A DNA stretch of 39,708 nucleotides. Source: a virus (Duplodnaviria; Heunggongvirae; Uroviricota; Caudoviricetes). The number at the start of each line of letters is the position of its first letter. The stretch's first letter is position 1. Location: positions 1 through 39,708 of IMG/VR virus record IMGVR_UViG_2909288124_000005; one strand, given 5' to 3'. The notes beneath the pieces are model-generated. The model worked only from the letters and a program-made list of their open reading frames with translations, had not been told where the DNA came from and searched no databases. Made by a program: the position numbers and the translations under genes. Shown piece after piece: positions 7,873-10,893 of this stretch.

Positions 7873-8705
7873 ACAGTTTAACGGCAAATAACCGTTTGTC
7901 GCAACAGCTGGTGGTCAGCGTCGCTGAACACCTGTTGTTACGGCATGAATGCAGATTACCAAATCACCTGGCTGTAAGTAACCACAGAGAACTTTACCTG
8001 ACTGTGGGGGGCGAGTTGTGCAGGAACTTAACCGCTGGTTTCGTGACGGAAGAGGGCTTTATGTCCATGTTATTCGTTGGGAGCCAGAAACACAGCGCGT
8101 TATCTATCTTCGCAAAGACTACCCGCATGAGTGCTTTAGTCCTTTGTGGAAATTCAGGCGTGATTTTGTTGAGTGTGAAGGACCACCAGCACATTGATTC
8201 TGCCATTCCGGGACGTTACACTGTTCAGGCACCTTATAAAGCGGGTGTCGGGATTGGCGTCCTGGAATTGCATACGGCGACAATTGGCGCGTTAGCGTCT
8301 TTTTTGTTGCTACAACTCAGCTATACCCAAATTATGGTGGGCTGGGTGGGGGCACCGAAAGGTGCGCCGGTTTCCGTATGCGCCGGTTACGCCAACCCTG
8401 CTCAGTTCACCACCAGCGAAATTGGCGTTTCCGGTGGTGGAAGTTATCCATTGCATACGGAGGCTGCCATCATGGCTACTGTCCCAGCCCTCACTCGTCT
8501 GAATGATGAAGACTTACATAAACTCAGTTATGTAACAACTGCACTACGTGCTCTGCGCAAGGTAACTCTTTCGGATCCGCAGGCGCATCAAGTTCTGGTA
8601 GAAACCCTTCTTAACTTGCAGGCTGAACGTATTCGTCTGGCGGATAAGACTAATTTTCATATTCACCGTCTCCTGAATATCAGCGGAGGGCATCGTCATG
8701 CTTAA
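7869..8705 (+). CDS. Hypothetical protein (278 aa)
   Basis: Long open frame, start overlaps upstream stop (ATGA) and end overlaps next start; no domain recognised. Confidence 0.4.
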   Translation: MNSLTANNRLSQQLVVSVAEHLLLRHECRLPNHLAVSNHRELYLTVGGELCRNLTAGFVTEEGFMSMLFVGSQKHSALSIFAKTTRMSALVLCGNSGVILLSVKDHQHIDSAIPGRYTVQAPYKAGVGIGVLELHTATIGALASFLLLQLSYTQIMVGWVGAPKGAPVSVCAGYANPAQFTTSEIGVSGGGSYPLHTEAAIMATVPALTRLNDEDLHKLSYVTTALRALRKVTLSDPQAHQVLVETLLNLQAERIRLADKTNFHIHRLLNISGGHRHA

Positions 8706-8934
8706 TCCGTTGATCCTCAATATTTGCCGTTTTCTTCAGCGTAAAAAAACATCAATTCCTACAGTTGGGCAGTGGTACACCACACCTGCAGGGCATGTTC
8801 TACGTGTTAGCCTGGTTGACCGTGAATGCCAGAAGGTGATTTGTGAACCGCTTGGCCGTAATTACCGCGTCAGTATGCCGCTTATAGCCTTTCGCTCCGG
8901 AAAAAACATGAAGCATCTCGGAGGTGCAGCATGA
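8698..8934 (+). CDS. Hypothetical protein (78 aa)
   Basis: Translationally coupled on both sides. Confidence 0.35.
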   Translation: MLNPLILNICRFLQRKKTSIPTVGQWYTTPAGHVLRVSLVDRECQKVICEPLGRNYRVSMPLIAFRSGKNMKHLGGAA

Positions 8935-9749
8935 GTATGGAGCTGATGGTTAAAGCGATGAAAATTCGAGTGGGTAATCCATTGCGAAAACTGGTTCTGA
9001 TCAAGCTGGCTGATAATGCCAGCGATCAGGGTGAGTGCTGGCCCAGCTACCAGCATATTGCTGACCAGTGCGAGATTAGCAAACGTTCTGTGATGAATCA
9101 TATTGCGGCCCTTTGTGAGTCCGGGCTGGTAAAAAAAGTCACCCGGAAAGGTGAAAAAGGTAACTCAAGTAATATCTATCTCCTTCATCTGGATGGTGCA
9201 GGAGATTCACTAGGGGGTAGTGCAAATAATTCACTATCTGGTGCAGCAAATTCACTAGGTAGTGCAGGAGTTGCACCAGGGGGTAGTGCAGGAGATTCAC
9301 CCAGAACCAGTCACTCTTTTGAACCAGTCAAAGAACCAGTCAATGAACCAATAGCTGTTGGTGCATCAGTTGATGAGTCCGTGCGAGTTCGTTCAAACCG
9401 ACCGGAATACTCTCCGGAGTTTGAGCAGGCATGGCTGGCATATCCCAAACGTGCTGGTGGCAATTCAAAATCTGCAGCCTTCAAAGCCTGGAAAGCCCGT
9501 TTGAATGAGGGAGTAAACCCCGAAACCATGCTGGAAGGTGTGAAACGCTACGCGGGCTGGGTATCTGCGATGGGTAACAGCGGCACACAATTTGTGAAAC
9601 AGGCTGTCACGTTCTTTGGTCCGGATCGTCATTTCGAAGAATCCTGGGAAGTTCCTGCGGTATCTGCAGCCAGACGTGAGGACCCGTACTTCAAAGCCAG
9701 TTACGACAACGTGGACTACAGCCAGATCCCGGCAGGATTCAGGGGGTGA
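8931..9749 (+). CDS. Replication initiator-like protein (N-terminal winged HTH)
   Basis: N-terminal LRKLVLIKLADNASDQGECWPSYQHIADQCEISKRSVMNHIAAL resembles phage replication-protein HTH domains; internal iteron array. Confidence 0.6.
   Translation: MSMELMVKAMKIRVGNPLRKLVLIKLADNASDQGECWPSYQHIADQCEISKRSVMNHIAALCESGLVKKVTRKGEKGNSSNIYLLHLDGAGDSLGGSANNSLSGAANSLGSAGVAPGGSAGDSPRTSHSFEPVKEPVNEPIAVGASVDESVRVRSNRPEYSPEFEQAWLAYPKRAGGNSKSAAFKAWKARLNEGVNPETMLEGVKRYAGWVSAMGNSGTQFVKQAVTFFGPDRHFEESWEVPAVSAARREDPYFKASYDNVDYSQIPAGFRG
9195..9354. repeat. Iteron-like direct repeats inside replication gene (putative ori)
   Basis: GTGCAG at 9196, 9241, 9262, 9285 and AGTGCA at 9219 (TGCA spacing about 21-23 bp); GAACCAGTCA at 9304, 9321, 9333. 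Confidence 0.5.
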
Positions 9750-10240
9750 TCATGAGTCTTTTGAATGAAGTTCAGAAATTCATTGAAGCCCATCCGGGGT
9801 GTACTTCCGGAGACATTGCGGATGCTTTTGCAGGTTACTCACGGCAGCGCGTTCTGCAGTCAGCAAGCAAGTTACGTCAGAGTGGGCGTGTGGCTCACCG
9901 TTGTGAAGGAGATACACGCAGACATTTCCCACGCCTGACTGAGAGAGCGCAGGAGCCGGAACCACAACCAGTTCGTGAAACCAAACCTGTGCGCAATTTC
10001 TATGTCGGCACTAACGATCCCCGGGTGATTTTGTGCCTGACCCGCCAGGCTGAAGAGCTGGAGTCCAGGGGGTTATACCGTCGTGCTGCAACGGTGTGGA
10101 TGGCGGCATTCCGAGAAAGCCACTCCCAGCCAGAACGAAACAATTTTCTGGCGCGTCGTGAGCAGTGCTTACGGAAAAGCAGCAAGCGAGCTGTATCGGG
10201 TGATGAGTGGTATCTGTCAGGGAATTACGTGGGGGCTTAA
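9746..10240 (+). CDS. Putative regulator with PerC-like C-terminal motif
   Basis: Motif EELESRGLYRRAATVWMAAF resembles PerC-family signature as I recall it; weak. Confidence 0.3.
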   Translation: MIMSLLNEVQKFIEAHPGCTSGDIADAFAGYSRQRVLQSASKLRQSGRVAHRCEGDTRRHFPRLTERAQEPEPQPVRETKPVRNFYVGTNDPRVILCLTRQAEELESRGLYRRAATVWMAAFRESHSQPERNNFLARREQCLRKSSKRAVSGDEWYLSGNYVGA

Positions 10241-10893
10241 TGAGTAATAAATATTGCCAGGAGCTGGTGGAACTGCGGAACAAACCAGCCCATGAACTGA
10301 AGGAAGTGGGTGATCAGTGGCGCACGCCGGACAACATTTTCTGGGGAATTAACACCCTGTTTGGCCCGTTTGTTCTGGATCTGTTCACTGACGGTGATAA
10401 CGCCAAATGTGCCGCGTATTACACTGCGGAAGACAACGCGCTGGCGCATGACTGGTCAGAACGTCTTGCGGAGCTTAAAGGGGCTGCCTTTGGTAATCCC
10501 CCATACAGCCGCGCCAGTCAGCATGAAGGGCAATACATCACCGGCATGCGTTACATCATGAAGCATGCCAGTGCCATGCGTGATAAGGGCGGACGCTATG
10601 TTTTCCTGATCAAAGCTGCCACCAGCGAAGTGTGGTGGCCGGAAGATGCAGATCATATTGCTTTTATTCGCGGGCGTATTGGTTTTGAACTGCCTGCCTG
10701 GTTTATCCCGAAGGACGAGAAGCAGGTGCCGACAGGCGCTTTCTTCGCTGGTGCTATTGCTGTTTTCGACAAGACCTGGAAGGGACCGGCAATCAGCTAC
10801 ATCGGGCGCGATGAACTTGAGGCATGTGGTGAGGCGTTTCTGGCGCAGGTTCGCCAGCAGGCAGAAAAACTGGTCAGGGAGATGGCGGCATGA
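10240..10893 (+). CDS. Phage N6-adenine DNA methyltransferase (Dam-type)
   Basis: NPPY catalytic motif (FGNPPYSR); ATG 10240 overlaps upstream stop (TAATG). Confidence 0.75.
   Translation: MSNKYCQELVELRNKPAHELKEVGDQWRTPDNIFWGINTLFGPFVLDLFTDGDNAKCAAYYTAEDNALAHDWSERLAELKGAAFGNPPYSRASQHEGQYITGMRYIMKHASAMRDKGGRYVFLIKAATSEVWWPEDADHIAFIRGRIGFELPAWFIPKDEKQVPTGAFFAGAIAVFDKTWKGPAISYIGRDELEACGEAFLAQVRQQAEKLVREMAA

Follow-up and report, generated by a model that had tools for sequence, protein, structure and literature searches.

The 39,708-nt stretch analyzed here (the window) comprises positions 1 to 39,708 of the IMG/VR record IMGVR_UViG_2909288124_000005, a virus of the Caudoviricetes, and carries, at 8931–9749 on the plus strand, a gene for a replication initiator of 272 amino acids (aa). 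Sequence comparison makes it highly likely that the segment 9194–9354, within the linker-coding part of this gene, is the initiator-bound replication origin of an SfV/Ayreon-like lambdoid prophage. The segment is built of two parts, an array of five palindromic iterons, which across relatives co-varies with the recognition helix of the initiator, and an adjoining block of short direct repeats, which is almost invariant across the family. Both parts bear the marks of selection at the level of the DNA.

A pattern search located the sequence GTGCA-N5-T(T/G)CAC at positions 9196, 9220, 9241, 9262, and 9286, that is, with start-to-start spacings of 24, 21, 21, and 24 nt. The pattern is absent from the rest of the 39.7-kb window (6 strand-matches observed versus 0.21 expected), and none of 100 shuffled sequences reached 6 matches. 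With two flanking positions lengthening each core, the full site is a 19-bp palindrome, TRGTGMA-N5-TKCACYA, which is present in five copies at 9194–9302, none of them assigned to a strand: iteron 1 (TGGTGCAGGAGATTCACTA, 9194–9212), iteron 2 (TAGTGCAAATAATTCACTA, 9218–9236), iteron 3 (TGGTGCAGCAAATTCACTA, 9239–9257), iteron 4 (TAGTGCAGGAGTTGCACCA, 9260–9278), a perfect dyad that matches the pattern on both strands, and iteron 5 (TAGTGCAGGAGATTCACCC, 9284–9302), the last bases of which overlap the conserved block. Tandem Repeats Finder gave its highest scores in the window to the arrays at 9196–9300 (period 21/24) and at 9321–9350 (12 bp). The first-pass annotation had listed five repeats at a spacing of about 21–23 bp, followed by three copies of GAACCAGTCA. 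Both sets of repeats were found again by sequence inspection, pattern search, and Tandem Repeats Finder, and only the spacing of the five sites had to be corrected. Its statement that the repeats encode a protein linker was borne out as well. The array corresponds to aa 89–124, between the N-terminal winged helix (aa 1–88) and the C-terminal domain (aa 160–215), and the repeat stretch is translated, within the open reading frame (ORF) 8931–9749, into GAGDSLGGSANNSLSGAANSLGSAGVAPGGSAGDSP-RTSHSFEPVKEPVNEP. The repeats thus encode a stretch that is predicted to be disordered by AlphaFold2 (aa 91–156, predicted local distance difference test [pLDDT] 30–38).

The codon usage of the array is strongly skewed. 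All seven Ala codons are GCA and all three Leu codons are CTA, a codon that accounts for 2% of the Leu codons in the window genes. When the peptide of the window was resampled 20,000 times with synonymous codons, the number of sites was at most two, compared to the five that were observed.

To compare the array among relatives, we used a sample of 11 diverged phage homologues and 80 species-level genomic homologues, the latter counted irrespective of whether the prophage was intact. The hosts include Pseudomonas, Xenorhabdus, Photorhabdus, Shewanella, Marinomonas, Haemophilus, Aeromonas, and Proteus, and Vibrio phages are also represented. A scan of viral contigs with close-homologue alignment recovered only loci that were 96–100% identical to the window and was uninformative on divergence. 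An array of 21–24-bp repeats that starts at about nt 260–290 of the gene is present in all 11 diverged phage homologues and in nearly all of the 80 genomic homologues. The cores are lineage-specific, and nearly all of them are dyad-symmetric (GGGCAG-N3-CTGCCC, GGTGAC-N5-GTCACC, TGCCA-N5-TGGCA, GTGAA-N5-TGCAC, TGTGCC…GCACA, and GTGTA-N5-TACAC). The half-sites vary together with the recognition helix of the respective initiator: ISKRSVMNHI is paired with GTGCA, ISRRSVINHI with GTGAA, ISKRSVMRHI with GTGAC, xxRSTVKxHIRELE with GGGCAG, and CSKSAVRNHIDALEDM with TGCCA. Altogether, there are about ten helix/half-site classes across more than 100 lineages, which are phylogenetically dependent on one another. 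Within the GTG(C/A)A class, the copies of one and the same array use two reading frames in 36 of the 68 arrays; for instance, GTGCAGCAGATTCAC is translated as VVQQIH, whereas a near-identical copy yields SAAGSP. The dyad also extends to positions outside of the search pattern, with T at −2 in 91% and A at +16 in 79% of the sites. Because of these two-frame copies, the extended dyad, the co-variation with the helix, and the codon resampling, a purely peptide-level or slippage origin of the 21–24-bp repeats is excluded as far as sequence evidence goes. The pattern matches what would be expected for binding sites of a dimeric winged-helix protein.

The close homologues of the initiator are between 242 and 302 aa long and differ by whole repeat units only. 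Variants of 242–251 aa (P0028–P0034, P0037, and P0041) have lost most of the array, and those of about 250 aa keep just two iterons (…AGDSPGGSAGDSP-RTSH…); one such variant occurs on 64 contigs. By analogy with lambda, in which two iterons and the flank suffice for unwinding, the short-array variants might still fire; alternatively, they may mark defective prophages.

The second part of the segment begins where the array ends. Exact copies of GAACCAGTCA are present at 9304–9313, 9321–9330, and 9333–9342, and a degenerate fourth copy, GAACCAATAG, at 9345–9354, all on the plus strand. The spacing of the units is thus 17/12/12 bp; copy 1 is read as RTSH, and copies 2 and 3 are read in another frame (EPVK and EPVN). 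Units 1 and 2, in general form GAAYCAGTCA, and the start of unit 3 are contained in a 38-nt block at 9300–9337 on the plus strand (CCCAGAACCAGTCACTCTTTTGAACCAGTCAAAGAACC, also given as CCCAGAACCAGTCACTCTNNTGAACCAGTCAANGAACC) that is conserved throughout the family. For 81 lineages, dereplicated at 95% identity of the N-terminal DNA, the block was anchored by its best match, a procedure that tilts the values slightly toward identity; it was found in one reading frame in 81 of the 81 lineages, with at least 32 of the 38 nt identical in 80 of them. The conservation per nucleotide was 93–100%, including the synonymous third positions: 99% for AGA, ACC, AGT, and TCT, 98% for GAA, 96% for CAC, 95% for GTC, and 93% for CCA, with weaker values for the variable AAT (59%) and the TTT spacer (90%). 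As a control, we used 38 N-terminal columns with at least 90% conserved residues, in which the major codon averaged 52%, and in which Arg19 and Ser39 are each encoded by six different codons. Variation within the block is confined to three kinds of position, namely the Y in every GAAYCAGTCA unit, the spacer of 3 nt, and the trailing bases. Depending on the frame, the Y results in either T/I or P/S, and a change between F, S, L, and P is also tolerated. Hence, amino acid changes are tolerated where the DNA motif is degenerate, and silent changes are not seen where it is fixed.

The geometry of the block is likewise fixed. All 118 lineages of a second gene set have a distance of 17 bp between units 1 and 2, the later spacings are nearly all 12 bp, there are 2–4 units per locus, and the last iteron adjoins the block in the tabulated loci. 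The GC content of this 118-lineage gene set ranges from 36 to 62%, and nowhere else in the gene does the local GC content drop as far as in the block (−0.10 compared to the mean of the gene). The block is kept irrespective of the iteron type and of the C-terminal domain. A scan of viral contigs with the exact pattern revealed at least 120 block loci; among the matches listed, 114 have an HTH_36 N-terminal domain in frame upstream, and of the remaining six, five are cut at the edge of the locus and one is apparently frameshifted.

More distant relatives retain the element in altered forms. In the mEp013 clade, the unit is found in a third reading frame (CCT-AAY-CAG-TCA…AACCAGTAA, read as PNQSYITSK), so that the AAYCAGTCA unit is used in three frames family-wide (AGA-ACC-AGT-CAC, GAA-CCA-GTC-A, and that of the mEp013 clade). 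In two other diverged loci, GAACCTGTCATA is present twice. In the Vibrio D171 clade (L086 and L373–L378), a different 12-bp direct repeat, TCCTAACAGTAC / TCCTAACACTAC, occupies the position of the block; the initiator of this clade is a more distant winged-helix protein (about 30% identity) with GGTGAC-N5-GTCAC iterons, and the two-part layout is the same. Because the diverged clades keep a direct-repeat element in the same place, the general architecture, as judged from these comparisons, is one of specific iterons plus a short direct-repeat element that is sequence-invariant in the main family. It follows from the alignments that the GAACCAGTCA copies are part of a family-wide invariant DNA block rather than phage-specific iterons. 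The interpretation of all repeats as iterons in the first-pass annotation therefore has to be divided: it stands for the 21–24-bp sites, which are selected as DNA, dyad-symmetric, and co-vary with the recognition helix, and it falls for the GAACCAGTCA copies.

Several other readings of the block were tried and rejected, namely an integration host factor (IHF) site, an internal start codon, a resemblance to boxA (CTCTTT), and a minus-strand promoter (TTGACT hexamers), all four sought by eye. In these cases, the key positions are variable or a matching second element is lacking.

From these features, we infer how replication might be initiated. Dimers of the N-terminal winged-helix domain of the initiator would bind the five 19-bp palindromic iterons. 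Because one helical turn separates the half-sites, and about two turns separate neighboring sites, the bound dimers would be stacked on one face of the DNA, in a complex similar to the O-some of lambda. Stress arising from this complex would open the adjoining block of GAAYCAGTCA 12-mers, a local GC minimum, and the block, in single-stranded or double-stranded form, would be recognized either by the initiator, through a conserved surface (the N-terminal 47 residues), or by a conserved host factor. Since the phage has no gene for a helicase, a loader, or a primase, the exchangeable C-terminal domain, presumably the module that contacts the host replication machinery, would recruit the DnaB machinery of the host. 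The assignment of the block as a sequence-specific unwinding or helicase-entry element is offered tentatively, as the role that we currently favor. A wider generalization, which we regard as conceivable but somewhat doubtful, is that all HTH_36-family initiators share one origin-opening/helicase-entry element, irrespective of iteron specificity, C-terminal domain, or host. This element would consist of 2–4 GAAYCAGTCA units with 17/12-bp spacing, fixed in position against the last iteron, and its reader would be either the invariant 47 N-terminal residues of the initiator or a replisome factor of the host that is conserved across the Gammaproteobacteria.

A number of observations weigh against an origin at 9194–9354. 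No independent origin hallmark was found near the array, because a DnaA box, a promoter, and a known RNA family are all missing in its vicinity: the region 8500–10300 contains no Rfam family at E ≤ 1 and no sigma-70-like promoter, and the DnaA box TTWTNCACA does not occur on either strand of the 39.7-kb window, compared to 3.7 ± 2.1 occurrences in shuffled sequences. The absence of DnaA boxes may be due to chance or to avoidance. The block has a GC content of 40–47% in the window and is thus only mildly AT-rich, unlike the AT tract of ori-lambda. The array copies are related by duplication and the lineages by descent, so that the co-variation and the codon statistics do not represent independent samples. 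The model also does not account for the way in which a single protein of 272 aa, the C-terminal domain of which has no Pfam family, would recruit DnaB. Finally, no experimentally mapped origin has been reported for any member of the initiator family, and the authors of the Eru typing scheme for Shiga toxin (Stx) phages state that there is no knowledge of the replication proteins of Eru phages (PMC8951638).

Alternatively, the repeats could be initiator-binding sites that serve mainly for control, with the true start site located elsewhere. They could act as roadblocks to transcription and thereby autoregulate the initiator gene, or they could control the copy number or cause incompatibility by handcuffing. 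Dyad sites bound by dimers are typical of operators, and the sites lie within the transcribed initiator gene. In addition, dimers of iteron-plasmid initiators bind inverted repeats for autorepression, iterons exert incompatibility, and the pIGRK origin contains an incompatibility determinant (PMC6854812). However, the iterons of lambda are likewise dyad-symmetric and yet form an origin, the 39.7-kb window contains no further repeat cluster or iteron copy, and the array always adjoins the conserved low-GC block with a fixed geometry. Predominantly regulatory sites are therefore unlikely; moreover, control and initiation are compatible and not mutually exclusive.

A different possibility pertains to the 38-nt block alone, which could be a homology patch at which the N-terminal domain and its iterons are recombined with various C-terminal modules, or the site of a host factor that is unrelated to unwinding. 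The mosaic nature of these genes lends this idea some support. The C-terminal domain is swapped among relatives, with one class of N-terminal domain combined with different C-terminal domains and, conversely, one C-terminal domain with different N-terminal domains and arrays (P0058 and P0072); a mosaic junction directly follows the block; and in E. coli genomes, genes that otherwise cannot be aligned are connected by nothing but a 37-nt match to the block (H134). Nevertheless, the 38 nt are maintained in 80 of 81 lineages, which range from Haemophilus to Pseudomonas and have synonymously saturated flanks, and a homology patch by itself would provide too little purifying selection for this. The 2–4 direct repeats with invariant 17/12-bp spacing indicate that the DNA element is functional, and so does the different 12-bp repeat that is found at the same place in the Vibrio D171 clade, which makes this explanation quite improbable.

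The weakest alternative, that the array is nothing but a slippage-prone Gly/Ser/Ala linker from a recent tandem duplication, with RTSHSFEPVxEP as a conserved short linear motif of the protein and without any function of the DNA, would account for the variable copy number among close relatives, the predicted disorder, and the one reading frame shared by all five iterons of the window, but it can practically be dismissed in view of the copies in two frames, the dyad extended at unselected positions, the co-variation of half-sites and recognition helix, the use of one DNA unit in three reading frames, and the block itself, in which synonymous sites are 93–99% conserved, versus about 52% at conserved N-terminal residues, and T/I, P/S, and F/S/L/P changes are tolerated.

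An origin inside the initiator gene is textbook knowledge for lambda and P22. The lambda origin is located centrally in gene O and consists of iterons and an AT-rich tract, and two iterons plus the tract suffice for unwinding (PMC7466680; for the iterons within gene O, see also PMC8022706). As proposed for the window, the lambda origin coincides with the linker between a DNA-binding N-terminal domain and a C-terminal domain, and comprises several sites of about 19 bp with an internal dyad, located about two helical turns apart (PMC7466680). The iteron number varies, with four in lambda versus six in Stx phages and a matching change in the length of O (PMC7466680), as it does among the relatives of the window. 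The opening region of lambda is directly beside the last iteron (PMC7466680), the place that is taken by the conserved block in the window. The parallel to lambda drawn in the first-pass annotation thus applies to the intragenic repeats, but it does not extend to the initiator, which belongs to HTH_36 and has no Phage_rep_O match, nor to a partner, because no P-, DnaC-, or DnaB-type gene follows. Furthermore, the flank of the iterons, although it is the deepest GC dip of the gene, is conserved in sequence rather than simply AT-rich, as a block of GAAYCAGTCA repeats common to all iteron specificities. The iteron part represents an expected new member of the lambda-type origins; the differences from the lambda model lie in the invariant block and in the initiator-only layout.

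The origins in gene 18 of P22 and phage L, which were also read comparatively, resemble the putative origin of the window in having lineage-specific repeats in the coding region of the initiator (PMC8022706). In contrast, these initiators are paired with a gene for a DnaB-type helicase (gene 12), and a family-wide invariant block has not been reported for them. The initiators of iteron plasmids (RK2 TrfA, F RepE) are also winged-helix proteins, and direct repeats of 12–13 nt adjoin their iterons. The 13-mers of the plasmid unwinding elements are bound strand-specifically as single-stranded DNA by the winged-helix Rep, and all of them are required (PMC4081077); by analogy, they may be the best mechanistic counterpart of the GAAYCAGTCA units. 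However, the Rep_3-type proteins (RepE, TrfA, and pi) have two winged-helix domains, whereas the model of the window protein has one winged helix plus a small helical domain, and the plasmid origins lie outside of rep, have AT-rich 13-mers, and usually include DnaA boxes, whereas the array of the window is intragenic and lacks a DnaA box. The origin of pHW126/pIGRK has a conserved region (CR) and four lineage-specific 20-bp iterons, and both parts are bound by the winged-helix protein RepR (PMC6854812). A family-wide conserved region beside lineage-specific iterons is shared with the window, as an analogy only. The plasmid origin is located upstream of repR rather than inside it, and these plasmids are thought to use rolling-circle replication.

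The replication regions of the Stx phages of types Eru5, Eru6, Eru8, Eru11, and Eru13 encode HTH_36 proteins, and the module of the window is of the Eru6 type (PMC8951638). The Eru6 reference, Stx2a_WGPS2, has a module 98.5% identical to that of the window, and the Eru5 reference, F403, carries a GGGCAG-N3-CTGCCC array together with the same block. The Eru papers type the replication regions by gene content only. The 2021 paper contains neither the word "iteron" nor "origin of replication", the 2022 paper does not contain "iteron", and none of the passages retrieved from the latter for "origin" is about an Eru origin. A description of the origin of this initiator family was not found in the searchable literature, from which older phage papers are largely missing, so that an earlier mention is possible.

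The identity of the initiator is well supported. It matches HTH_36 (PF13730) with 44.1 bits (cut-off 25, E = 1.8e-11) and PHROG 270, "replication initiation protein", with E = 3.1e-88, and Phage_rep_O was not matched at E ≤ 0.01 in the Pfam search. Its identity to proteins with a replication annotation in SfV (orf39), Ayreon, mEp460, and many Stx2 phages is 98–99.6%, and the type also includes sb42 of ST64B. A homologue search yielded 5,460 proteins, and the gene is present with at least 80% coverage in 896 of 5,426 complete E. coli genomes. In the AlphaFold2 model, the N-terminal winged-helix domain (aa 1–88, 8931–9194, pLDDT 71–91) contains the recognition helix at aa 51–63 (9081–9119) and a beta-hairpin wing at aa 67–85 (9129–9185), and the small C-terminal domain (aa 160–215, 9408–9575) consists of the helices 162–170, 180–192, and 197–214; all of these are encoded on the plus strand. 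The evidence for the C-terminal domain includes PHROG matches labelled "DnaD-like helicase loader" and "primosomal protein". A search with the C-terminal domain alone revealed no Pfam family for the window protein, and a sub-threshold DnaT-like match was obtained only in klb_E. Foldseek searches with the initiator model retrieved generic winged-helix folds only (MarR/ArsR/PadR, DnaD-N), none at E ≤ 0.001, and a sequence search of the PDB gave no meaningful match. In the database proteins P0047, P0049–P0051, and P0078, the N-terminal domain and the array (69–79% of the query) are fused to a RusA domain, which suggests deletions of the C-terminal domain and the intervening genes in some E. coli prophages. 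Within the wing-coding part of the gene, about 40 bp upstream of iteron 1, there is a terminator-like hairpin on the minus strand (9139–9154, TCACCTTTCCGGGTGA then CTTTTTTTAC) with a T-run to about 9129; with one terminator-like site found in the region versus 2.0 expected, it may have arisen by chance.

Upstream of the initiator gene are cI, cro, a cII-like gene, an Ash-family gene, and a small ORF, and downstream are a PerC-like gene and genes for a presumed Dam methylase, a protein with a LexA-type DNA-binding domain, RusA, and Q. A gene for a helicase, a loader, or a primase was not found in the window, nor in phage Ayreon (host according to the record: E. coli K12), which carries the same replication module. 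The ATG of the initiator gene overlaps the stop codon of the upstream 78-aa ORF (8698–8934, PHROG 1153) as ATGA, and its own stop codon overlaps the start region of the PerC-like gene at 9746–9752 (GTGATCATG). Both overlaps suggest that translation is coupled along the early-right operon. A 228-aa ORF (10207–10893) that separates the PerC-like gene from the LexA-type gene would, from its sequence alone, encode a phage Dam-type N6-adenine methyltransferase; in phage Ayreon, the LexA-type gene directly follows the PerC-like gene, without this ORF at that position. The segment 9194–9354 contains no GATC. The downstream gene is annotated as yfdN in E. coli genomes, and we take yfdN to be part of the cryptic K-12 prophage CPS-53/KpLE1. 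If this assumption is correct, the truncated yfdO of K-12 ("defective replication protein O") is presumably a remnant of this initiator type.

This type of initiator is very common, and it also drives several of the "non-lambdoid" Eru classes of Shiga toxin phages, in which phage replication sets the dosage of the toxin gene after induction. An origin narrowed to about 160 bp, together with the predicted specificity classes, would provide a rule for the compatibility of origins and initiators between co-resident prophages. The invariant block would offer a defined entry point to the question of how one winged-helix protein might open DNA and recruit the helicase of the host. If the notion of a shared opening element is true, the block would be a phage counterpart of the DnaA-trios or of the 13-mers of plasmid unwinding elements, and it would explain how DnaB is loaded in "initiator-only" phages, such as SfV, ST64B, Ayreon, and the Stx phages of type Eru6, which lack their own loader.

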